This document shows, one piece after another, positions 45,341 to 58,099 of a stretch of 64,000 nt of DNA (positions within the stretch are counted from its first letter, which is position 1; every line of letters begins with the position of its first letter). The notes beneath the pieces were generated by a model. The model worked only from the letters and a program-made list of their open reading frames with translations. It was not told the origin of the DNA and searched no databases. The stretch is taken from positions 1,279 through 65,278 of the forward strand of contig JAYEHK010000155.1 in the NCBI GenBank assembly GCA_034659475.1, in the 5' to 3' direction. The DNA comes from Bacillota bacterium. Lineage in GTDB: Bacteria; Bacillota; Syntrophomonadia; Syntrophomonadales; Syntrophomonadaceae. The position numbers and the translations under genes were made by a program.

Positions 45341-45892
45341 CTATAAACCAAGCGTCGGAGCGATTTTTTTCATACTTTCCAGCGAGATCGTCATGAATTC
45401 TTCCAGTTCCAGTCCCAGCTCTGTGCAGGTCTGCATCTGTTCCCGGTTGGCACCTCTGGCAAAGGATTTTTCTTTAAACTTTTTTTTCAGAGATTTTAAC
45501 TGTACGCCCTCTAATGACTTATCCGGTCGCACCATCGCTGCTGCGGTAATAAAACCAGAAATAGGATCCGCAGCATAGAGAACCTTGTCCAACATAGACT
45601 CGCGCGGCAAACCATGCGCCCCGTTATGTACCTTGACCGCATAGACGATATCAGCTTCCACCCCATTGTCCTCAAGGATCTGTGCCCCCACCAGGGAGTG
45701 CTCTGCCAGATCATCCCCGATTTCATCATAGTCTATATCATGTAGAAGTCCTGCCAGACCATACTTCTCCACGTCTTTTCCCAATCTTTCTGCCAGCCCT
45801 CTCATGATCGCCTCAACAGCCAGTGAGTGATGGACAAGATTTTCATTGGTTAGATGCTGGTTTAATAACGTAAGTGCCTCTACTCGTTGCAT
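45341..45892 (-). CDS. HD/HDIG-domain phosphohydrolase
   Basis: HSLAVEAIMRGLA...LLHDIDY (H...HD motif), 183 aa. Confidence 0.8.
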   Translation of the reverse strand: MQRVEALTLLNQHLTNENLVHHSLAVEAIMRGLAERLGKDVEKYGLAGLLHDIDYDEIGDDLAEHSLVGAQILEDNGVEADIVYAVKVHNGAHGLPRESMLDKVLYAADPISGFITAAAMVRPDKSLEGVQLKSLKKKFKEKSFARGANREQMQTCTELGLELEEFMTISLESMKKIAPTLGL

Positions 45893-45917
45893 GTTGTAAG
45901 CTCCTTTCTATTTATAA

Positions 45918-46200
45918 ACATTTGATTCCCCTGCAAAAACCCCCAATATTTCTGTTTGGATGTATAAATATTCTGGAAGCGTTGGCGGAGCATGGGAGCA
46001 ACACTCTGCGAAGACGAACGGAAAAAGGGGGCGAGCCCCACGGACGGGGCGAGAGGGCATCTGAACATGGACGTGAATTTGTCCTGTACCCCTTTTTCCG
46101 TTCGTCGAGTAGTTAGTGTTGCCCCATGCGGAGACTGCTGTAAGAATATTTATACATCCAAACTCACTAATATGACTTTCCGCAGGGGAATCACATTTGA
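45918..46200. repeat. Long imperfect palindrome (~280 bp; two ~130-bp arms head to head)
   Basis: Perfect 21-bp block GTTTGGATGTATAAATATTCT (45954-45974) versus 46143-46163. Further paired blocks are GCATGGG(A/-)GCAACACT, GACGAACGGAAAAAGGGG and ATTCCCCTGC. The mismatched blocks are of equal length. Confidence 0.8.
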
Positions 46201-46420
46201 ATTAAAAGCATGATCTCATTGTAGGCTTCTCCTAGAAATGGTAACCCATTAGGCGAAAATTAGCAAAATATTGCAGCCAAATCAATTTTCTTACTCCCCC
46301 CCACACCCAAAGGAAACAATCCCATATAGAAATAGATTAAGCGTATTGCATTTTATTTATGAATGAGACAAAATGAAACGCCCCCCTGTCTCATATTTTC
46401 GTACTAACCACTTCAACGTT

Positions 46421-46450
46421 CCAACTGTCCAACTAACCAACTTTCCAACT
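46421..46450 (+). repeat. CCAACT octamer-array element, copy 1
   Basis: CCAACTGTCCAACTAACCAACTTTCCAACT. The minus sense reads 4 tandem AGTTGGNN units. It ends 34 nt from the RND gene stop. Confidence 0.7.
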
Positions 46451-46483
46451 AATAACTCCGCTTATACTCAACCTATTTTCTTA

Positions 46484-49400
46484 CTACCCCTTAGGTCTCA
46501 ACTGGCAGTGCTTCTTTCCCCGATACAGATAGTAAAGAGAAGGAATCAATACCAGCGTAAGCATGGTTGAGTATAGTAATCCCCCGGCAATACATGTCGC
46601 CAGTGGCTTGAATAATAGATTATTCCCCAGTGCCAATGGCATTAAACCCAGAAACGACGTTCCGGCTGTAAGCAGAATGGGTCGTAAACGCTGGGCTCCT
46701 GCCTCTTGTATGGCATCCTGCAGATTCATCCCGTCACGCATCTTCTGCTCCATAAACTCCACCAGAATAACCCCATTCCTGACAACCACCCCGGCCAGAC
46801 TGATGACCCCCATCAGGGACATAAATCCCAGTGCGGTACGGGTCATAAACAGGCTGTACAGTGCACCGGAACTGCTTAGTAATACGGTAGTCATGATCAA
46901 CAAGGCCAGTACTAAGGAGTTAAACTGTACTGCCATGACCATAAGAATGAGCAGTATGACAACCATAAAGATCTTGCCAATCTCAATAAAGACTTCATTA
47001 CGCGCTTCATTTTCGCCGGCAAACTCAAAACTAAAACCCGGGTAATCGCTGACTGCTTCTTCAACCTCGGAAGCGACTGCGGCTTGAATTTGATCGGCTG
47101 TGGTTTTACCATCCAGATAAGCCCGAATCGTATTGCTGCGTTGATAATTGTCATGCGAAATTCTTTCAAATTCCAGATCTGTTACTGGGTAACCAACCGT
47201 ATCCAGCGCTACTGGATGCCTGATTTCATTAAACAATGTGATTCTAGAGAAGTCCTGACTTAACCCCTTCATTTCGCCCTGATATTTTAATCGAACATCC
47301 ATTAATTGGGTCCCATCATCCCACTCTCCAATCTTCAGACCTTCGCCATGCAGGCGCAGAGCCTCACTCACTTCCTGTCGGTTGACCTTATGCATATGCA
47401 TGGCCTGACGCTGAGGCATAAAAACCAGCGCAGGCACAGATTGTCCCAGATTGTCATTGACACTCAAAACCCCAGGTTGGGATAGGAGCAGCTGGCGCAT
47501 CCTATCGCTTACGTCCTGTAAGTCATCCAGCGAATCACCGGTAACTTTAATCGCCAATGGCGCCCCTGTCGGCGGTCCCGATTCAACCACGGAAAGTGTA
47601 AATCGGGCAAGGGGAAATGTTTTATCCAGTTCGTGACTTAACTCGTCTTTGACCTGACGTGCCTTTTCTTTTTCCCGATCTACAAACACCAGCATATTGG
47701 CACTATTGGGTCCAACGGGACCGGCACTGCTCATCCCAAATATTCGCGGCACTGATGTCGCGTAATACGTGTTCACCTCTCTGATGCCTGGCTTTTGCCG
47801 TATGTAGTTTTCAATCTCATCAACAGTCTCCATGGTCGATTTCAGTGAACTGGACTGGGGCAGTTCGATCTCTGCAAAGATCTCCTCCCTGTCTACGTCG
47901 GGGAAATATTCAAGCGGTATGAACGGAATCAGCGCATAAGCCAACAGGCTAAGCACCAAACAGCATACTGCAGAACGCCAGGGATGATGAATGATTCGGG
48001 GCAGTAGATGGACTGCGTAATATGCCTGCCATCGGCTGATAGGCTGATCCAGCCAACCGCTTTTCCGATTCTGATTTCCCTTTTGCAAGCACTGCTCCAA
48101 AACATAGCGATACACCGGGGTAACAAACAGGGCTGCCAGCGTTGATGCTATGATCGTTGCAACGATAACAACCGGCAATGGGCGGATAAAACCACCCGAT
48201 CCTCCTGATAACAAACACAATGGCAGAAAGGTAAAGATTACGATCAGGGTAGAAGTAATAACCGAAGTGGCAACTCCTCGCGTCCCCTTTAAGATGGATT
48301 CACGAACCCCAAGACCCTGTATACGGTAACGGGTAATATTCTCATTCACCACAATGGCATCATCAACCAGGATACCTAAAACGATAATAAAGGCGATCAA
48401 GGTGATCTGGTTCATATCCACCCCTGCCAATGGAAGCATGATAATGCCGCCGCATAAGGCCAGGGGAATGGTTAATGCGACCCCCACAGAGGTATAGCGG
48501 TTTAACCCTGCCGAGGAAACCAGCGCTACGCATAACATGGCCAATAAAAACGCAATCCCCAGATCATGAAACATTTTTGTTATCGGGTCGGCCTGGGTGT
48601 AAATCTGAACGATCTCAACCCCTGCCGGCAGCACCTTTTCCATCTGCTCTATAAGGCTGGAAATATCCCGATCCACCTTCAGCAGATCTACATCCGAGCT
48701 GGCAAAAAAGCTAACCGAGACAGCCGGTTTACCCTGGTAGGTTACCCTCTCTCCATCAGGTGCAGGCGTTTCGGTTACCGAGGCAATATCACCCACCCGC
48801 AGCACAGTATTTCCATCACCAGCAGATAACGGCAGATCAAGCAGATCTGCTGCATCTACTGTCTGATCCAGCGCCCATCGGTACACCACACCATCCATAT
48901 CCCACTTCCCCGGCGGCGCGGGTCTGATTTCTGTTTGTAGCTGGCGGATAAGCTGTGAGGGTGAAAGCCCTGCAGCAGCCATGCGAGCTGGATCTGCTTC
49001 CAATAAGACTTCATGCGCTTGCAATCCCTGTATATGCACCTGTGATACACCAGGCAACTGACGAAAAGCAATCTCCCATTTTTCCAGAAAAGCATCCAAT
49101 TGAGTCAGATCACCCTCCTGTTCAGCGACCAACTGGTAGATGGAAACCCCCTGCATCCGCAGGTCACTGTCCATGGAAGGCAACTGAACGCCATCAGGAA
49201 ACTCCGCCGTTGCCTGACTCATCTTTTGCTGCACCTGGTTCCAAAGTTTTTCTTTATCCCGGGTTGATTTTGCAGTGACTGTAATGACGGATACCCCCGC
49301 CTGTGAATTGGAGGTGATCTCCTCTATTCCGCTTACGGCAGCAATGGATTCTTCTAATTTCCCTGTCACATACTGTTCGACCTGACGGGCAGTTGCCCCC

Positions 49401-49549
49401 GGATACACGGTTGTAATAATTGCTACTGGATGGTCAATTACAGGAACCTCTCTCCGCGGCAGCTGATACAGGGTAATCAACCCCATGGCAATCACCAGCA
49501 TAACCGCCAGCCATACGATCAGCCGACGCTTCAATACTTGTTCCAGCAT
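46484..49549 (-). CDS. RND (AcrB/AcrD/AcrF family) efflux permease
   Basis: 1021 aa, 12 TM helices with two large loops, typical N-terminus (RRLIVWLAVMLVIAMGLITLYQLPRREVP). Confidence 0.9.
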   Translation of the reverse strand: MLEQVLKRRLIVWLAVMLVIAMGLITLYQLPRREVPVIDHPVAIITTVYPGATARQVEQYVTGKLEESIAAVSGIEEITSNSQAGVSVITVTAKSTRDKEKLWNQVQQKMSQATAEFPDGVQLPSMDSDLRMQGVSIYQLVAEQEGDLTQLDAFLEKWEIAFRQLPGVSQVHIQGLQAHEVLLEADPARMAAAGLSPSQLIRQLQTEIRPAPPGKWDMDGVVYRWALDQTVDAADLLDLPLSAGDGNTVLRVGDIASVTETPAPDGERVTYQGKPAVSVSFFASSDVDLLKVDRDISSLIEQMEKVLPAGVEIVQIYTQADPITKMFHDLGIAFLLAMLCVALVSSAGLNRYTSVGVALTIPLALCGGIIMLPLAGVDMNQITLIAFIIVLGILVDDAIVVNENITRYRIQGLGVRESILKGTRGVATSVITSTLIVIFTFLPLCLLSGGSGGFIRPLPVVIVATIIASTLAALFVTPVYRYVLEQCLQKGNQNRKSGWLDQPISRWQAYYAVHLLPRIIHHPWRSAVCCLVLSLLAYALIPFIPLEYFPDVDREEIFAEIELPQSSSLKSTMETVDEIENYIRQKPGIREVNTYYATSVPRIFGMSSAGPVGPNSANMLVFVDREKEKARQVKDELSHELDKTFPLARFTLSVVESGPPTGAPLAIKVTGDSLDDLQDVSDRMRQLLLSQPGVLSVNDNLGQSVPALVFMPQRQAMHMHKVNRQEVSEALRLHGEGLKIGEWDDGTQLMDVRLKYQGEMKGLSQDFSRITLFNEIRHPVALDTVGYPVTDLEFERISHDNYQRSNTIRAYLDGKTTADQIQAAVASEVEEAVSDYPGFSFEFAGENEARNEVFIEIGKIFMVVILLILMVMAVQFNSLVLALLIMTTVLLSSSGALYSLFMTRTALGFMSLMGVISLAGVVVRNGVILVEFMEQKMRDGMNLQDAIQEAGAQRLRPILLTAGTSFLGLMPLALGNNLLFKPLATCIAGGLLYSTMLTLVLIPSLYYLYRGKKHCQLRPKG

Positions 49550-49552
49550 AGA

Positions 49553-50653
49553 TTAAAGACCTTCCTTTACGATAACTGCTTCCCCATCCCGCAGACGGTG
49601 CAGTCCACCCGTTACAACAAGACTTCCTTCGTCTACCCCTGATACCACTACCCTTGACCCTTCCGCTGCGCCTAATGCTACCTTCTGTCGATAGGCTTTT
49701 TGATCCTTAATTACATATACATAGGGATCTTCACCCCCGCCAATCGCTTCTATTGGCACCAACACCTTTGCGTCGCTTTCCAGCAAGAACTTTACCTCTG
49801 CAAAAGAACCCGGGCTCCAGTCCAGTTCAGGATTATCCACCCGTATTTTAATGACAATTCTTTCTGTTCCTGGCTGTGAAACTGTGTTTATGTTCTCAAT
49901 CATCGCCAGTCTAACCTCTCCCCGATATTCCACCTGCAGGCTGTCCCCTTCCTGCCATCCGTTCATTTCCTCCCGAGGAACCGCCAGATCCATAACGAGA
50001 TGATCCCGCTTGCCAGCTCTGAATACCATTTGTCCTGCATTGACGTACTGTCCTATTTGCACCATATTCTCTGCCAGCCAGAGGGTATCATCCGCCTTTA
50101 ACGCAGCATTATCTATATTCAGACGGCTCTCTTCTTGTCTGACCAATGCTTGGTCAAGCCGAAGCTGGGTCTGGTTCATATCGTTTGCCAGCAATGCTAA
50201 ATCCAGCTCCATTTGTTGCAACGCGTCTTGTGATATGGCGCCCTCTTCAAAAAGCAGTTGCTGTTTGGCAATCGTTCCCTGGTCCTTTTGATGGCTTTCC
50301 TTTACTTTTTCATATTGAAGCTGCGCCAGGGCCACCTCCTGATCAGCACTTTCCATCGCCAGAGAAGTCGTCTGGTTTTCAATTAGGACCAGGGTATCTC
50401 CATTCATCACCTTATCCCCTGCCTGATGATAAAAATGGCGTACATATCCGGGCATCTGGGCACAGATATACTGCTCTTCATCAAGCTCCATTACCACGTC
50501 ATAAACCTTTTTCACCGATATTTCCTGTTTCTTTACTTTCTCAACGGTTACCGTCGGTCGCATATCATTACTCGCTGCCTCCTGGCCTGGTGCACAACCT
50601 CCTGCGCAGAGCAAAAGCAGCACAACTGCCAGAACCCCTATTCTCGTTTGCAT
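49553..50653 (-). CDS. Efflux RND periplasmic adaptor (membrane fusion protein), lipoprotein
   Basis: LLLLCAGGCAPG lipobox, coiled-coil hairpin and beta-barrel regions. It ends 4 nt before the RND permease gene. Confidence 0.85.
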   Translation of the reverse strand: MQTRIGVLAVVLLLLCAGGCAPGQEAASNDMRPTVTVEKVKKQEISVKKVYDVVMELDEEQYICAQMPGYVRHFYHQAGDKVMNGDTLVLIENQTTSLAMESADQEVALAQLQYEKVKESHQKDQGTIAKQQLLFEEGAISQDALQQMELDLALLANDMNQTQLRLDQALVRQEESRLNIDNAALKADDTLWLAENMVQIGQYVNAGQMVFRAGKRDHLVMDLAVPREEMNGWQEGDSLQVEYRGEVRLAMIENINTVSQPGTERIVIKIRVDNPELDWSPGSFAEVKFLLESDAKVLVPIEAIGGGEDPYVYVIKDQKAYRQKVALGAAEGSRVVVSGVDEGSLVVTGGLHRLRDGEAVIVKEGL

Positions 50654-50854
50654 TCTATTCCTCCCTAGGCCTTACGCCTCGCCTCTTCTTTCTTTTAAGA
50701 ATACTATAAGTCAGTTAATAAGATCTGCAAAGGTATATTTTGGTATTGTTCCGCACACTGCCTTTTTAAATCATCTCATCCAGGGGTATGCAAATTCATC
50801 AGCATTCAGAATTAACCATCAATGGCCGCACGACACAACCACCGATGAAAATAA

Positions 50855-50928
50855 GTGAGGAGTGAGGCGTTAGGAGTCAGGCGCTATGCGCCAGGCATTG
50901 CCCTTACTCCTCACCCCTGACCCCTTAC
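50855..50928. repeat. Heptamer-array hairpin, copy A: (GTNAGGN)4 - GC mini-palindrome - (NCCTNAC)4
   Basis: GTGAGGA GTGAGGC GTTAGGA GTCAGGC, then GGCGCTATGCGCC, then CCCTTAC TCCTCAC CCCTGAC CCCTTAC. Confidence 0.8.
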
Positions 50929-50935
50929 AAAAAAG

Positions 50936-51068
50936 GTCTGCGTCCTTAATCACGACCGAAAGGGAGTATCGGTTGTACCCGTAGTGTGCGAAAGTTCAGA
51001 AAGTCTGCGTCGTCAGCATCCTTAATAGTGACCGCAGGGAACATCAGTGGTACCCGTAAGGGTGCGTC
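50936..51068 (+). repeat. Two imperfect tandem ~55-65-bp repeats (GTCTGCGTC...CCTTAAT...GACCG...GTACCCGTA..GTGCG)
   Basis: Unit 1 is 50936-50990 and unit 2 is 51002-51066, aligned by eye. Unit 2 has a 9-nt insertion (GTCAGCATC). Confidence 0.6.
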
Positions 51069-51114
51069 TATTAAAAAGCTATTTTCTAATTAATTACCAT
51101 AGTGTATACATAGT

Positions 51115-51143
51115 CAAAAAGGCTCCCGCTATGCGGGAGCCTT
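51115..51143 (-). terminator. Rho-independent terminator after the esterase gene
   Basis: Minus strand AAGGCTCCCGC-ATA-GCGGGAGCCTT followed by TTTTGAC. Confidence 0.7.
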
Positions 51144-51226
51144 TAGTTCTTTATTATGTAATCCGTCTCATTCAATCCTTATATCTTCTTTAACCATTAG
51201 TTGTAAGCAGCACAGGTTTAAAGCCC

Positions 51227-52027
51227 TCACTCCTGACCCTTTTTCTTAATGATTCCATCATTGTTTTCCGCGCAAACCCTGGTCATAAACGCAACGATTT
51301 CAGCTGCTATTTTATCCTTTTCGGGCCCCATGGTGGCAACATGTTCAGACATCTCTAATTCTACTTTTTTAGCCTGAACGGCACCGATCTTTTCCATCAA
51401 AAAATCAGCACTTTTGGGATTTACGGATTCATCTTTCAGAGACTGTATAACAAGAAGCGGCACCCTGATTTCACATAGTTCATCAACCAACCGATGTCGA
51501 AGGCTCAACATGCTTTGAAAGGCTTTCACCGGTATAACTTCATAAGCAAAACGGCCCTGATCAGCCAGTTCCCGCAGCTTTACAAGACCTTTTTTTAAAA
51601 AATACGGTTTAACAACCCGCATCACAGGAGCAGATACGCTTAACAATGGATGATTGTTATATATAGGCGCATTTATGGTAACTATTCCATTAATTCCTTC
51701 GATTTGATCAGCAGCATGAAGCGCCAACAGTGCCCCCATAGAAAAGCCGACAACAAACACCCTGGCATAATTCTCACGAAGATAATTAACTTCTGTATTG
51801 ACAGCTCCATACCAGTCTTCCCAGGTTGTATCCTTCAAATATTTCGGGTTTGAACCATGACCCGGTAGAAGCAATCCGCTTACAGAACATTGCGTCATTT
51901 CATGGACAAGCTTTGCCACCGGATATACTTCTGAAGGGGAAGCGGTGAAACCATGAATAAATAGCAGTGCAATATCTTTGTTTCCTTGTAAAAAAAAAGG
52001 CTCGGCCTGCGGGTAAATGTATATCAT
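51227..52027 (-). CDS. Alpha/beta-hydrolase carboxylesterase (YvaK/Est-like)
   Basis: HGFTASPSEV, nucleophile elbow GFSMGA, 266 aa. GGGAGG RBS before MIYIYPQ. It sits in the same position as yvaK in the B. subtilis secG-yvaK-rnr-smpB-ssrA block. Confidence 0.85.
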   Translation of the reverse strand: MIYIYPQAEPFFLQGNKDIALLFIHGFTASPSEVYPVAKLVHEMTQCSVSGLLLPGHGSNPKYLKDTTWEDWYGAVNTEVNYLRENYARVFVVGFSMGALLALHAADQIEGINGIVTINAPIYNNHPLLSVSAPVMRVVKPYFLKKGLVKLRELADQGRFAYEVIPVKAFQSMLSLRHRLVDELCEIRVPLLVIQSLKDESVNPKSADFLMEKIGAVQAKKVELEMSEHVATMGPEKDKIAAEIVAFMTRVCAENNDGIIKKKGQE

Positions 52028-52137
52028 GATTTCCTCCCTTATACTGTACACGATATTTTTCCTCTAAATCGTTACTATCATAATCCTAATTCAAAACTAC
52101 TCTTCTATCTAGTGTTTTTGAAAAAATAAATTAATAT

Positions 52138-52271
52138 GGTTACTACTCAGCCGTGTTAATCCGTGTCTATTCTTTCCAACTTACCAACTAACCAACTGAC
52201 CAACTTTATGCCGCATAATCCGTCAACTGTCGAAACTTGAGTTATTATTTTGTCAATGGCTGAGTAGTAAC
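52138..52271 (+). repeat. CCAACT octamer-array element, copy 2, bounded by 14-bp inverted repeats
   Basis: GTTACTACTCAGCC (52139-52152) versus GGCTGAGTAGTAAC (52258-52271). The core CCAACTTACCAACTAACCAACTGACCAACTTT (52176-52207) is followed by ATGCCGCATAATCCGTCAACTGT, as in copy 3. Confidence 0.8.
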
Positions 52272-52320
52272 TTAATATGAACCAGACAAATAAGCAATTT
52301 ATTTTTTATTCCCAGAAAAT

Positions 52321-52353
52321 AGAAAAAGCAGGTGGCTAAGCCACCTGCTTTTT
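52321..52353 (-). terminator. Rho-independent terminator after hppA
   Basis: Minus strand AGCAGGTGGC-TTA-GCCACCTGCT followed by TTTTTCTATTTTC. Confidence 0.75.
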
Positions 52354-52362
52354 AAATACTAA

Positions 52363-54372
52363 TTATTTAATAAGTAACTGGGATACGAACACCAATGATA
52401 CGATGGTCATAAGCTTCAGCAAAATGTTCAGTGAAGGACCAGCGGTATCCTTACAAGGATCGCCAACAGTGTCACCTTCAATAGCAGCTGCATGAGCCGG
52501 ACTATGTTTTCCGCCATATGCACCAGTAGTTTCGATGTATTTTTTAGCATTGTCCCATGCTCCACCTGCGTTAGCCAGCATGATCGCCAGACAAACACCA
52601 GATACGATAGCACCAGACAGCATTCCAGCCAGCGCTTCAGCGCCTAGCCCAACGCCAACAATAACCGGAACAACGATAGCCATCAGACCAGGCATAACCA
52701 TTTCTTTAATGGCAGCTTTAGTACTGATTTCAACACATTTAGTATAGTCTGCAGTTGCTTTTCCTTCCAGCAAACCTTTAATTTCTCTGAATTGTCTTCT
52801 TACTTCTTCAACCATTTCTCCGGCTGCTCTGCCAACAGCACCCATGGTCATAGCACAGAATAAGAAAGGCAGCATACCACCAATCAGCAGACCAACAATA
52901 ACGAGAGGATTCAGGATATCAACAGACTTCAATCCTACGACCTCGGCAAAGGCAGTTAAAAGAGCCAGTGCAGTCAGCGCAGCAGAACCTATAGCAAATC
53001 CTTTACCAATCGCAGCAGTAGTGTTTCCAACGCCATCAAGTTTATCCGTAGTTGCTCTAACTGATTCGTCTAATTCCGGAGTCATTTCAGCAATACCACC
53101 AGCATTATCAGCAATAGGACCATAAGCATCAACGGCAACAACCATTCCTGTGGTTGCCAGCATTCCTACAGCAGCCATAGCAATACCATAAAGACCAGCC
53201 AACTTAAAGGCGATAAGGGTAGCTGCACATATCAGCAGAATAGGAATAGCGGTTGAAAACATTCCAACACCCAGACCAGCAATAATAACAGTAGCCGGAC
53301 CGGTTTGAGTTGCTTCAGCAATAGACCGCGTCGGTTTATATGCATCAGAAGTATAGTACTGGGTAACAAAACCAATGATGGTTCCTGCAACCAGACCACT
53401 GACAATAGCTCCAAATACGCCGATCCCAATCTCAGGAGCGAGCAACTTGGTGCTGGCAAAATAAGCGAAGATAAGTAATATAATCGCTGAACCTACAGTC
53501 CCTTTGTTAAGTGCTACTAATGGATCAGAATCTTCTTTGGTCTTAACAAAAAATGTTCCGATAATAGAAGCAAGGATACCGCCTGCAGCAATAATCATAG
53601 GTAATAAAACGCCGCCCATTCCCAGGGTTGCCATACCTACAGCGCCCAGGGTCATAGCAGCAATAATTGAACCAACATAGGATTCAAACAGGTCAGAACC
53701 CATCCCAGCAACGTCACCAACATTGTCACCAACATTGTCAGCGATCGTAGCAGGGTTTCTGGGATCATCTTCAGGAAGACCCGCTTCAACCTTACCAACC
53801 AGGTCAGCTCCAACATCAGCAGCCTTGGTGTATATTCCACCACCAACACGACCGAATAAGGCAATAGAACTACCACCCAGAGCAAAACCATTTACAACCG
53901 TAGGATCCTCAAAGATTATGTAGAGAATACCTAATCCTAAAAGTCCTAAACCGGAAACAGACATTCCCATTACAGCTCCACCTGAAAACGCTACTTCTAA
54001 GGCACCGTTTAAAGATGTTCTGGCTGCATTAGTTGTTCTGACATTAGCTTTGGTTGCAACTTTCATGCCTATGAATCCAGCTAAAGCTGAACATATGGCA
54101 CCAGCTAAAAAGCATATTGCTGTCTGCCAGGAAACAAATAGTCCAACAATTACAAAAACAATAACAACAAATACACTGATTGCAGTATATTGTCTCTTCA
54201 AAAAGGCCATAGCGCCTTCGGAAATATAACCTGAAATCTCAACCATTTTCTCTGTTCCGGGGTCGGCTTTGTTAACTTTTCCTGCCAGGAACAATGCAAA
54301 AAGCAACGCAATCGCACCGCCTGCGGGCGCAAATGCTACTAAGCTTTGCAGATTCTCCATAATAACAAACAT
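52363..54372 (-). CDS. hppA: Membrane-integral pyrophosphate-energised ion pump
   Basis: 669 aa, about 16 TM helices, motifs [19 protein letters not shown] and DNVGDNVGD. The true start may be the ATG at 54360 (MENLQSL). Confidence 0.95.
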
Positions 54373-54439
54373 CTCCTCATTATTATTGTGAAAAAATTAA
54401 AATAGTGGCCTGCATGCAGATATTCTATTTCTCTATCAT

Positions 54440-54664
54440 CTAAAGCAGTGCCAAAAGCAAGGTTAGTACGACAAATCCAGCTGACAGATATGCAGTAATT
54501 TTAGCCAGCAGATCATCGACTCCTTTCTTCTTTCCAAAAAGTGCTTCGCTACCACCAGCAATACTACCTGATAAACCTGCACTCTTACCTGACTGTAACA
54601 AAATTGTTGAAATGAGCCCGAGTGCACACAGAACCTGTAGCACGAGCACTATTGTTTTGACCAC
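54440..54664 (-). CDS. secG: Preprotein translocase subunit SecG
   Basis: 74 aa, two TM helices, LLQSGKSAGLSGSIAGG motif. Confidence 0.9.
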   Translation of the reverse strand: MVKTIVLVLQVLCALGLISTILLQSGKSAGLSGSIAGGSEALFGKKKGVDDLLAKITAYLSAGFVVLTLLLALL

Positions 54665-54750
54665 CTTTTAACCTCCTTTCATCAACGAAGCTTCCCGAAA
54701 GCCGCAGTATATTTTACCACAATAGTACGTCGGGATACAACCCCGATCCC

Positions 54751-56070
<1,320 letters not shown>

Positions 56071-56211
56071 TTACTCATAGTTTCACACTTCAAGGATTAT
56101 GCGTCATAAGAACAGGAACAGAAGGGGACAAGCTGTGTCTGACCCCAACAATGTTCTATTGGGACTCTGCGTATCTAGATAATTGTGTGGTAACGCCGCA
56201 TGAAGGGAGCC

Positions 56212-56277
56212 AGGCTCCTAACTTATTCGCAATACGTAATAGAAACTAGTTTTATTTTCTGAATAAGTTAAGAGCCT
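56212..56277. repeat. 17-bp inverted repeat (AGGCTCCTAACTTATTC / GAATAAGTTAAGAGCCT) in the gpmI-eno spacer
   Basis: One G/A difference (G-U in RNA) and a 32-nt loop. Confidence 0.7.
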
Positions 56278-56352
56278 AGCACCTTTTTGGCTTTTGGAGT
56301 CTGTTTCCGTTCTCACGCTGATCCGCTCCGCAGCAGGGATTAACCTAGCTTT

Positions 56353-56435
56353 GGTAAGGGGTTAAAGGTTAGGGGGTTAGACGCTTCGCGTCAAACATTT
56401 TCCTCACCCCTCACTCCTAACTCCTTACTCCTTAT
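56353..56435. repeat. Heptamer-array hairpin, copy B
   Basis: GTAAGGG GTTAAAG GTTAGGG G.., then GACGCTTCGCGTC, then TCCTCAC CCCTCAC TCCTAAC TCCTTAC TCCTTAT. Confidence 0.8.
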
Positions 56436-56492
56436 TGAAATAGTCTGCCGTGTAAAGGGGGGAGATTATATTGATATCCCCTCTGAACCGTT

Positions 56493-56524
56493 CCAACTTT
56501 CCAACTAACCAACTGTCCAACTTT
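56493..56524 (+). repeat. CCAACT octamer-array element, copy 3
   Basis: CCAACTTTCCAACTAACCAACTGTCCAACTTT followed by ATGACGCATTATCTGTCTACT. It ends 37 nt from the gpmI stop. Confidence 0.7.
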
Positions 56525-56560
56525 ATGACGCATTATCTGTCTACTATGTCATTTGACTTC

Positions 56561-58099
56561 TTATTCCACCAGCGATCGCCCGGTCATTTCTGGGGGCAGG
56601 GGGATGTTCATTATGGAGAGCAGCGTGGGGGCTACGTCTCGCAGGGAGCCTTCTTCTCGCAGCGTTTTTTCTTTGTATTTTTCCGAAACGAGAACAAAAG
56701 GAACAAGGTTCGTGGTATGTGCAGTAAATGGGAACCCTGTTTCTGGGCTAACCATTTCTTCACAGTTCCCGTGGTCTGCTGTGATAAGAACTGTCCCCTG
56801 CTTCTCCAGGACCTTATCAACAACCTGTATCAAACATTCATCAACAGTATGAACAGCCTCAATGGCTGCTTCCAACACTCCAGTGTGTCCTACCATATCT
56901 GGATTGGCGTAATTCATAATACAGACATCATAGGTATCCTTGTCTAATTCTTCAAGCATTCGCGCTGTTAATTCTCTGGCGCTCATTTCCGGTTTGAGAT
57001 TATAGGTTGCTACATCAGGAGAGGGAATGAGAATGCGTTCCTCACCTGGATTGGGTTCTTCCACCCCACCGTTGAAAAAGAACGTAACATGTGCATATTT
57101 TTCCGTCTCCGCGATGCGAAGCTGTTTAACGTCCTTTTCAGCCAGGACTTCTCCCAAGGTGTTTTTTAGATTCTGGGGTTTATAAGCAACCGGCACCTCA
57201 AGCTGAATATCATACTCTGTCATGCAGACATAACAAATATCAGGTACTTTTCTTCTTTTAAATCCCTTGCATTCTTTATCAACCAGCGCATGGCTGATCT
57301 GTCTGGCCCGATCTGCCCGGAAATTGAAGAAAATAACACTATCGCCGTCATTGATCGTTCCTCTTGGGTTGCCCTTATCATCTACCAGAACAACGGGCTC
57401 GACAAATTCATCTGTGACTCGTTCCTCATACGATCTTTCAATCGCCGCCTGCGCATTAGGAGAAGGAACGCCCTCTCCCAGTACCATTGCATCATATGCT
57501 TTTTCAATACGATCCCAGCGATTATCACGATCCATGCCGTAATAGCGGCCACCCAGCGTGGCGATTTGCCCAATACCAAGCTCCTGCATCTTCATTTCCA
57601 ATGCATCAATGTATTGCTGGGCACTTTTCGGAGCAACGTCTCTTCCATCCAGGAATCCATGCACATAAACGCGTTTCACCTGCTGTTCTTTACACATTTC
57701 CAGCAGAGCATAGAGGTGGGTCATTAGACTGTGCACGCCGCCATCGGAGAGCAACCCCACGAGGTGTACAGCACCATCATTTTTCACAGCCTGCTGCATA
57801 GCCCGGATAAATTCTTTATTGTCAAAAAAACTTCGGTTCTCAATCGCATTACCGAGTCGAGTGATCTCCTGATAGACAATCCGACCCGCACCCATGTTTA
57901 GATGCCCCACTTCGGAATTACCCATCTGACCATCTGGAAGGCCTACACATTTCCCACAACATTTAAGCACCGTAGAAGGATAAGTACCCTGCAGACTTTT
58001 AAAATTCACCGGATTGGCACAGGTCACGGCATTGTCATCACAGGGATGCCGTAATCCCCACCCATCCAAAATCATTAATACCACCGGTTGTTTAGCCAT
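56561..58099 (-). CDS. gpmI: 2,3-bisphosphoglycerate-independent phosphoglycerate mutase
   Basis: MAKQPVVLMILDGWG..., SEVGHLN, ADHGN motifs. 512 aa. Confidence 0.95.
   Translation of the reverse strand: MAKQPVVLMILDGWGLRHPCDDNAVTCANPVNFKSLQGTYPSTVLKCCGKCVGLPDGQMGNSEVGHLNMGAGRIVYQEITRLGNAIENRSFFDNKEFIRAMQQAVKNDGAVHLVGLLSDGGVHSLMTHLYALLEMCKEQQVKRVYVHGFLDGRDVAPKSAQQYIDALEMKMQELGIGQIATLGGRYYGMDRDNRWDRIEKAYDAMVLGEGVPSPNAQAAIERSYEERVTDEFVEPVVLVDDKGNPRGTINDGDSVIFFNFRADRARQISHALVDKECKGFKRRKVPDICYVCMTEYDIQLEVPVAYKPQNLKNTLGEVLAEKDVKQLRIAETEKYAHVTFFFNGGVEEPNPGEERILIPSPDVATYNLKPEMSARELTARMLEELDKDTYDVCIMNYANPDMVGHTGVLEAAIEAVHTVDECLIQVVDKVLEKQGTVLITADHGNCEEMVSPETGFPFTAHTTNLVPFVLVSEKYKEKTLREEGSLRDVAPTLLSIMNIPLPPEMTGRSLVE

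Follow-up and report, generated by a model that had tools for sequence, protein, structure and literature searches.

The DNA analyzed here, called the window, is a stretch of 64,000 nucleotides (nt) from contig JAYEHK010000155.1 (positions 1,279 to 65,278, forward strand) of assembly GCA_034659475.1, a Syntrophomonadaceae-like Bacillota metagenome-assembled genome (MAG) of 3.16 Mb in 186 contigs, with 42% G+C and 99% completeness. Its minus strand carries three arrays of four tandem AGTTGGNN octamers at positions 46421 to 46450, 52176 to 52205, and 56493 to 56522 (copies 1, 2, and 3), in which the AGTTGG cores recur at an exact 8-nt spacing. The names given to the upstream genes in the original prediction agree with Pfam, which identifies the products as an AcrB-family resistance-nodulation-division (RND) permease, an H+-pyrophosphatase (hppA), and the phosphoglycerate mutase iPGM (gpmI), and the distances of 34, 156, and 37 nt stated in that prediction between the respective stop codons and the arrays are correct when counted from the high coordinate of each array. 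That the three sites are co-oriented octamer arrays was borne out by direct reading of the sequence, pattern search, shuffling, and tandem repeat detection: the search of the window for AGTTGGNNAGTTGGNNAGTTGG gave seven overlapping matches, only at these sites and all on the minus strand; no match is expected by chance (100 dinucleotide-preserving shuffles); and Tandem Repeats Finder detected a period-8 array of 4.0 to 4.4 copies at each site. The arrays read AGTTGG-AA-AGTTGG-TT-AGTTGG-AC-AGTTGG in copy 1, AGTTGG-TC-AGTTGG-TT-AGTTGG-TA-AGTTGG in copy 2, and AGTTGG-AC-AGTTGG-TT-AGTTGG-AA-AGTTGG in copy 3.

The three sites had been taken for copies of a single element. This is not the case, as they belong to three separate genome-wide families, here designated A (copy 3), B (copy 2), and C (copy 1). 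Copy 1 has nothing in common with copies 2 and 3 outside the array. The box of ~25 nt reported to be common to copies 2 and 3 was confirmed (copy 2, AGTTGACGGATTATGCGGCATAA; copy 3, AGTAGACAGATAATGCGTCATAA) and forms the inner part of a 26- to 31-bp terminal repeat with ~119 occurrences in the genome; the reported upstream box was also found in both copies, as ACACGGC.

Genome-wide, we identified 180 arrays with three or more exact AGTTGGNN units, so that the copies in the window are far from being the only ones, as the original prediction had considered they might be. These arrays contain 3 to 23 units each, are divided 100 to 80 between the strands, and are mostly intergenic, 171 of the 180 overlapping no open reading frame (ORF) of at least 90 amino acids (aa) in a gene map (2,689 ORFs of at least 90 aa, 81% of the genome) that outside the window consists of our own ORF calls and not of a curated annotation. 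Period-8 AACCAACT is the commonest tandem repeat class of the genome, followed by the heptamers AACCCCT and ACCCCTC and the decamer AACGCTGATT. When the 40 nt on either side of every array were compared, almost all arrays fell into the three families with conserved arms: 72 arrays in family C, 68 with a recognized core arm in family A, and 11 with the full downstream flank of copy 2 in family B. In addition, 14 A-type and 5 B-type arrays had the upstream box alone. BLAST coverage amounted to 30 to 50 copies for the family A core, 66 to 130 for the family C arms, and 9 to 26 for the family B arms, and it fell sharply at the element ends; the sequences flanking the elements are unique, and there are thus many dispersed similar copies at unrelated loci. 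The elements in the window are small (~99, 133, and 475 bp) and noncoding, as they enclose no complete ORF of 70 aa or more, and arrays with TT units were seen by direct reading to contain stop codons on both strands. Decamers (AACGCTGATT and AAATCAGCGT, ~60 arrays) and nonamers (ACACGGATT) are also abundant as modules adjoining octamer elements, and the heptamers AACCCCT, ACCCCTC, and AAGGGGT account for ~120 arrays in the genome.

Family A elements consist of a terminal repeat, (AGTTGGNN)n, a core of ~400 bp, (NNCCAACT)n, and a second terminal repeat, with the two arrays facing inward. They measure ~0.45 to 0.67 kb and are bounded by terminal inverted repeats of 26 to 31 bp (CGCAGTAGACAGATTATGCG ends). 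The genome contains 26 inverted pairs of the terminal repeat, 273 to 671 bp apart, and the mean identity of 13 complete cores is 95.4%. In the window, the family A element (copy 3; 56079 to 56553, minus strand; ~475 bp with ends accurate to about 5 nt; listed as pair C155 57369-57819) occupies most of the 523-nt spacer between gpmI and eno, and its core is 90% to 93% identical to those of other copies. Its left terminal inverted repeat (56523 to 56553, minus strand) reads AAATGACATAGTA-GACAGA-TAATGCGTCATAA and is followed by the array at the gpmI-proximal end, the only one in this element, as the right terminal inverted repeat (56079 to 56109, minus strand; TTATGACGCATAATCCTTGAAG...) is joined straight to the core without octamers. 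Since the gpmI-eno spacing in close relatives is only 0 to 64 nt at 12 of 18 loci, the 523-nt spacer is best explained by an insertion, of which the element supplies ~475 nt. Family A is restricted to this species; among 125 genomes of the class, full-length matches were obtained in this genome alone. The only part of the core with matches in other genomes of the class (22 genomes) is the heptamer runs, which in copy 3 form a nested fold-back at 56353 to 56435 (minus strand) of the form (GGAGTAA/GGGGTGA)n, GACGCGAAGCGTC, (TAACCCC)n, where GACGCGAAGCGTC is a mini-palindrome between the facing heptamer arrays. A search for a plasmid or phage source of family A gave no match, and the copies are too alike (95%) for covariation in the core to be informative.

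Family A also leaves its mark on the assembly. Arrays near contig ends point towards the break in 30 of 30 cases at 3' ends and in 26 of 29 at 5' starts, indicating that the short-read assembly collapses inside the family A core, and the repeat load explains the break-up into 186 contigs. The one Logan contig found by exact-protein look-up is identical to the window wherever it aligns and breaks within the same repeats.

Copy 2 is a complete family B element of 133 bp (52139 to 52271, minus strand), lying beyond the hppA terminator. The 14-bp inverted repeats reported at its ends (52258 to 52271 and 52139 to 52152) are exact (GTTACTACTCAGCC and GGCTGAGTAGTAAC) and close a stem, the fold of which has a z score of -4.9. 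Within these ends the element encloses one family A-type end plus array: an internal copy of the family A terminal repeat, CAAGTTTCGACAGTTGACGGATTATGCGGCATAA, is found at 52206 to 52239 (minus strand), directly 5' of the array, when copy 2 is compared with the logo of 119 ends and the flank table. In BLAST searches, eight matches extend over 80% or more of the family B element.

Family C elements are ~100 bp long and have two 17-bp direct boxes around the array and no inverted ends; the consensus order, based on an alignment of 72 arrays, is GGTTAATTAGAAAATAG, GTTGAGTATAAGCGGAATTATT, array, AACGTTGAAGTGG, GTTAATTAGAAAATAG. Copy 1 (46392 to 46490, minus strand; ~99 bp) accordingly has a left box GGGGTAGTAAGAAAATAG, then GTTGAGTATAAGCGGAGTTATT, the array, AACGTTGAAGTG, and a right box GTTAGTACGAAAATATG, and its exact array 30-mer is the commonest in family C, with 17 copies genome-wide. 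Just outside the family C arms, BLAST coverage drops to one to three copies. The stop codon of the RND permease gene (TAG, 46484 to 46486) sits in the left box of copy 1, and the 12 C-terminal residues of the permease extend beyond the Pfam profile, so that the insertion may have altered the C terminus of this protein.

The arrays vary in length next to flanks that do not. In family A, they have a median of 6 units (range, 3 to 23) beside a core that is 95% identical; in family C, the mode is 4 units (range, 3 to 12); and long arrays show higher-order periods of 16 and 24 nt. Such variation at conserved flanks, together with these periods, is what slippage would give, and we infer that the arrays lengthen and shorten by replication slippage. 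The arrays are dispensable to the elements. No array is present at the right end of copy 3 or at the inner end at C85:8426, and 29 of 120 terminal repeat matches have no adjoining array, most of them bordering other array-free elements and a few looking like chance matches. No fold of the family C RNA was significant in either sense (z = +0.3), the minimum free energy of the antisense RNA being 0 kcal/mol, and Rfam 15 gave only subthreshold matches (E values of 0.028 or higher) over positions 45800 to 57000 of the window, none of them at the arrays.

The orientation of the arrays relative to genes proved to be random genome-wide, which the original prediction had named as an outcome that would refute its RNA-element reading and indicate plain MITE (miniature inverted-repeat transposable element) behavior. 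Family C elements in spacers between co-directional genes are found 16 times in the sense and 16 times in the antisense direction; the figures for all arrays are 37 versus 29 (P = 0.39), and comparison of the array strand with the local gene-strand majority gives 89 versus 91. As to replication, there was no clear link of array orientation with GC skew and none with the gene-strand majority. Tandem, convergent, and divergent spacers hold 56, 23, and 18 arrays, respectively. The common sense of the three window copies and their upstream genes is therefore a coincidence. The short distances between stop codons and arrays arise because TAA or TAG is part of the outer element boxes: in 7 of the 29 family C copies with the same orientation as the upstream gene, the array starts 33 to 34 nt past the stop codon of that gene, which is thereby located inside the left box.

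The terminal repeat of family A, (A)GTTTCGCAGTA-GACAGA-TTATGCGNCRTAA, comprises two 7-bp inverted arms and a 6-bp center. Its inner arm is the better conserved one, and in the logo of 119 ends conservation begins ~12 nt outside GACAG. This 7-6-7 arrangement resembles the core site of a tyrosine recombinase, a similarity to be taken as a lead and not as a classification. Only one gene-bearing element with the same terminal repeat was identified, at C147:24694-26600 (~1.9 kb). It encodes a frameshifted tyrosine recombinase of the phage integrase type and an IS91-like Y2 transposase, both degenerate; IS91-associated recombinases are reported to group with integron integrases (10.1101/542381). Either end of this element has, besides the terminal repeat, a GTCAACTTT-GGGGACGGTTCTT-AAAGTTGAC hairpin, and elements of ~90 to 140 bp made of the hairpin pair alone occur in C168, C170, and C176. 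The region C179:4702-8060 has, beside an integrase/Y2 pair, genes for a helicase-like protein (544 aa), a protein of unassigned role, and a P-loop protein (GRTGSGRTH), which together look like a defense or mobile island. The single dif-like site of the genome (C91:10023-10050; ACTTCCTATAA-TGAACA-TTATGTAAACT), which differs from the Bacillus subtilis dif at four positions, has only TTATG in common with the terminal repeat.

Two candidates for a mobilizing enzyme were rejected. The Y2 transposase is not a general partner of the arrays: of the seven genomes in which the three-unit pattern matched more than once, just two have it. The genome also encodes 10 diverged proteins with a Y1_Tnp domain (PF01797) and a helix-turn-helix, most of them ~260 to 290 aa long (C179, C59, C47, C66, C68, C182, C185, C186, and C42), which resemble the repetitive extragenic palindrome (REP)-associated tyrosine transposases (RAYTs). 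No array or terminal repeat was found within 400 bp of the nine Y1_Tnp ORFs examined, and Y1 genes are present in 101 of the 125 genomes of the class irrespective of arrays. A long Y1-like form (open frames of ~250 to 350 aa) occurs in most genomes of the class, unlinked to repeats.

Taken together, these observations make it probable that the arrays are modules in three families of small, noncoding, dispersed, MITE-like mosaic repeats which have recently multiplied in this genome, and hence belong to selfish repeat DNA. The original prediction had mentioned a MITE as the alternative, and the random orientation, the inverted ends, and the ~95% identity of the core between copies all support it. 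Terminal inverted repeats are found in family A (26 to 31 bp) and family B (14 bp, exact) and not in family C. Family A represents a fold-back type of element, in which a terminal inverted repeat of ~30 bp, an inward array, and a core of ~400 bp are followed by a mirror-image end. An enzyme recognizing the terminal repeat would have spread the elements in trans, their insertion would leave no target duplication, and the octamer arrays would be carried along as microsatellite modules and would not act as signals for neighboring genes.

Several results weigh against this interpretation. No target duplication was detected at the 26 family A/D pairs when lengths of 3 to 9 bp at offsets of 0 to 15 were considered (best, 3 of 26 at k = 3); in classical MITEs, target site duplications are usual. 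An all-against-all BLASTP comparison revealed no multicopy transposase in the assembly, the matches being metabolic paralogues and prophage-like duplicates only; however, the assembly omits contigs of less than 2 kb, and a collapsed insertion sequence could thus be missing. None of the candidate enzymes examined could be tied to the elements: the integrase/Y2 pair at C179 is intact and lacks the terminal repeat, and neither Y1 nor Y2 transposase genes show co-occurrence with the arrays across the class. An empty site or insertion polymorphism was not shown, as the metagenome scan gave no conspecific contig (best match, 79%). Family C has direct boxes instead of inverted ends. Finally, other Bacillota carry the octamer unit with the same NN variants (TT, AC, TC, AA, and AT) and unrelated flanks, and such a module with changing partners is not predicted if a passive microsatellite merely expands by slippage and is spread by MITEs.

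The distribution of the unit in other genomes was therefore of particular relevance. The three-unit pattern was found in 11 of the 125 genomes and 6 of the 41 genera of the class, and the present genome far exceeds the rest, as the pattern matched 710 times here versus at most 53 times in any other genome of the class. Nine further Bacillota genomes with arrays were identified, eight of them uncultured Clostridia-type genomes and one an Evansella. We found no paper naming the octamer unit, literature searches with such strings matching unrelated primers only. A cyanobacterial origin of the present genome, hinted at by GCGATCGC in gpmI and by the resemblance of the arrays to cyanobacterial short tandemly repeated repetitive (STRR) sequences, was ruled out, as the best match of its enolase (81% identity) is in a MAG labeled Syntrophomonadaceae and the array-bearing genomes are Bacillota.

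The partners of the arrays differ between genomes. In G010, which represents a sister genus, a REP-like GGAGACTNNAGTCTCC hairpin lies at most 90 nt downstream of 10 of the 19 arrays, and a T-run precedes 8 of the 19 (loci L102 to L121). The REP-like palindrome GGAGACT(N2)AGTCTCC is also dispersed in that genome. In G043 and G046, two Clostridia MAGs assembled from long reads (loci L122 to L141), mini-elements of ~45 nt consist of AAAGTAGAA, (AGTTGGNN)3-4, and NNAGGAAAAG and often adjoin (GCTGAGRG)n arrays or complementary CCAACT arms. In most cases the 5' side of the array is no more than ~25 nt from a gene end; 13 of 20 arrays in two Clostridia genomes follow a gene of the same sense, and 10 of these start within 20 nt of the stop codon. 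At one orthologous site in two Clostridia species, the array showed no sign of selection, its conservation being equal to that of the surrounding spacer (~84%). Clostridia MAGs contain additional G-rich octamer arrays, (GCTGAGRG)n and (GTTGAGRG)n in G043 and G046, (AGCGGAAA)n in G045, and (AATAAAGA)n in G044, which often lie beside AGTTGGNN arrays or opposite their complements.

This distribution leaves some room, albeit little, for a broader proposal, namely, that tiny mobile repeats of a type not yet described spread horizontally in anaerobic Bacillota and have the AGTTGGNN array as their conserved functional module, read by a protein that recognizes AGTTGG at an 8-nt spacing. Such a module could have a different partner in each genome (MITE arms, a REP-like hairpin, or octamer and fold-back arms) and could tend to settle against gene ends. 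If it were true that the array is a protein recognition module across genera, this would point to an undescribed mobility or DNA-binding system.

The alternative that survives best, although we consider it unlikely, regards the array as an active cis-site. Each AGTTGG would be occupied by a single subunit of a DNA-binding protein (for example, a transposase or recombinase accessory factor, or a protein of the ribbon-helix-helix type), and the array would form the conserved, functional end of a mobile module that pairs promiscuously, with different partners in each genome. The recurrence of the octamer unit and its NN variants in the 11 genomes of the class and the nine other Bacillota is consistent with this view, as are the recurrence of the degenerate end units AAAGTAGAA (5') and NNAGGAAAAG (3') in several genomes and the constant position of the array at the 5' edge of a genome-specific partner (MITE arms here, the hairpin in G010, and octamers or CCAACT arms in G043 and G046). 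In family A, moreover, the array immediately adjoins the terminal repeat on its inner side, a position at which other transposons have subterminal binding sites; Tn7, Mu, and Ac/Ds are examples with protein-binding sites inside their ends. However, array-free ends occur in equally well-conserved copies, the unit number in family A (3 to 23) has no preferred value, no candidate protein co-occurs with the arrays, and at the orthologous site mentioned above the array is no better conserved (~84%) than the spacer.

The original prediction favored arrays in 3' untranslated regions (3' UTRs) whose GG motifs, spaced at 8 nt, would be bound as RNA by a multimeric RNA-binding protein controlling the stability or termination of the upstream gene. 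This possibility found no support in the present genome and appears very improbable. It could draw on the sense of the three window copies, all matching the upstream gene and two of them starting within 37 nt of its stop codon, on the 13 of 20 arrays after same-sense genes in the two Clostridia genomes (10 within 20 nt of the stop), and on the T-run before 8 of 19 arrays in G010. However, orientation is random here (16:16, 37:29, and 89:91), a single family A element can bear arrays in both senses, the proximity to stop codons is explained by TAA or TAG in the element boxes, and a conserved host regulator is difficult to reconcile with the lack of arrays in 114 of the 125 genomes of the class. 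In addition, neither the spacing nor the AGUUGG motif corresponds to a known system: TRAP recognizes (G/U)AG every 5 to 6 nt, and HutP recognizes UAG every 7 nt.

An effect of structure or composition alone, with the G-rich strand forming a G-quadruplex or the C-rich complement, (NNCCAACU)n, serving as a Rho-loading site that stops antisense transcription, is likewise very improbable: four GG tracts at an 8-nt spacing formally fit a two-tetrad quadruplex motif, and family C antisense RNA is predicted to be wholly unstructured (0 kcal/mol), as Rho-loading sites are, but ViennaRNA with quadruplex energies predicted only ordinary pairs and no quadruplex for the octamers (-1.7 kcal/mol), unlike for perfect (GGGGUGA)4 of the heptamer type, for which a strong quadruplex was predicted, and neither the random orientation, unexpected for an insulator against antisense transcription, nor the patchy phylogenetic distribution agrees with it.

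With MITE-like mosaic repeats as the preferred interpretation, the window arrays are uninformative on the regulation of the RND pump, hppA, or gpmI, and their local effects are incidental: the gpmI-eno spacer has grown from tens of nucleotides to 523 nt, and the permease has acquired a stop codon from a repeat box. Annotation of this genome should take into account that its stop codons and operon spacers are shaped by repeat insertions. More generally, the genome is that of an unusually repeat-laden anaerobic Firmicute whose intergenic space is made of reusable octamer, heptamer, nonamer, and decamer arrays, hairpins, and a common terminal repeat, a situation that recalls cyanobacteria and giant sulfur bacteria. 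Three families with one array, a recombinase-like terminal repeat, and no target duplication also provide a tractable case for studying how tiny modules spread.

Among known bacterial repeats, the closest in build are the BOX elements of Streptococcus pneumoniae, which have the order boxA-(boxB)n-boxC with a boxB of 45 nt, and BrickBuilt, a MITE of Porphyromonas gingivalis with a 23-nt repeat unit (Klein et al. 2015, PMC4596501). Like these, the elements described here are small, noncoding, and intergenic and consist of a leader, spacerless tandem units, and a tail, with short inverted ends, unit numbers that vary, and a narrow host range. They differ in that the unit has only 8 nt and in that one array is common to three otherwise unrelated families and to the partners in other genomes.

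With respect to the arrays themselves, cyanobacterial STRR sequences are dispersed tandem heptamers, and TAACTGA direct repeats occur in Beggiatoaceae, Cyanobacteria, and Bacteroidetes (MacGregor 2015, PMC4679880). The likeness is that one specific short unit forms head-to-tail arrays at over 100 intergenic locations in a genome and that the patchy distribution suggests horizontal spread, whereas the unit in the present case is an octamer with two free positions, located inside MITE-like elements of anaerobic Bacillota. The TAACTGA sets of "Maribeggiatoa" are found in a fixed sense a few nucleotides upstream of start codons (PMC4679880); the octamer arrays, in contrast, follow no rule of orientation or position and use all spacer types.

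The inverted ends of family A, in which short tandem repeats face each other around a central segment and the unit number differs between ends, are reminiscent of the Foldback (FB) transposons of Drosophila. Those are eukaryotic elements with much longer arms and, in some copies, a known partner transposase. Unlike FB, family A has a unique terminal repeat of 26 to 31 bp outside the arrays, and some of its ends are array-free.

REP sequences and the bacterial interspersed mosaic elements (BIMEs) and REPINs formed from them are mobilized by RAYTs (Bertels and Rainey 2011, PMC3116915). Similarities to the present repeats include their abundance as short intergenic sequences, their mosaic clusters of modules, and the lack of target duplication. 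However, the octamer arrays are not palindromic, the Y1 genes are flanked by neither arrays nor the terminal repeat, and the Y1 gene count does not track the arrays.

The dif modules and other Xer-dependent modules, as well as the IS91 elements with an integron-like recombinase (10.1101/542381), are comparable with respect to the 7-6-7 repeat (CGCAGTA-GACAGA-TTATGCG), which is present as inverted copies at both ends without target duplication and in one element encloses a recombinase and a Y2 transposase. The differences are that only TTATG is common to the repeat and the dif-like site of the host and that the enclosed genes are broken.

The arrays bound by TRAP or HutP and the arrays of CsrA sponges are more distant, as the octamer arrays occur with equal frequency in sense and antisense, are absent from most relatives, and present an AGUUGG motif at an 8-nt spacing. 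Compared with all of these systems, the repeats of this genome are MITE-like elements in a modular form not previously described.

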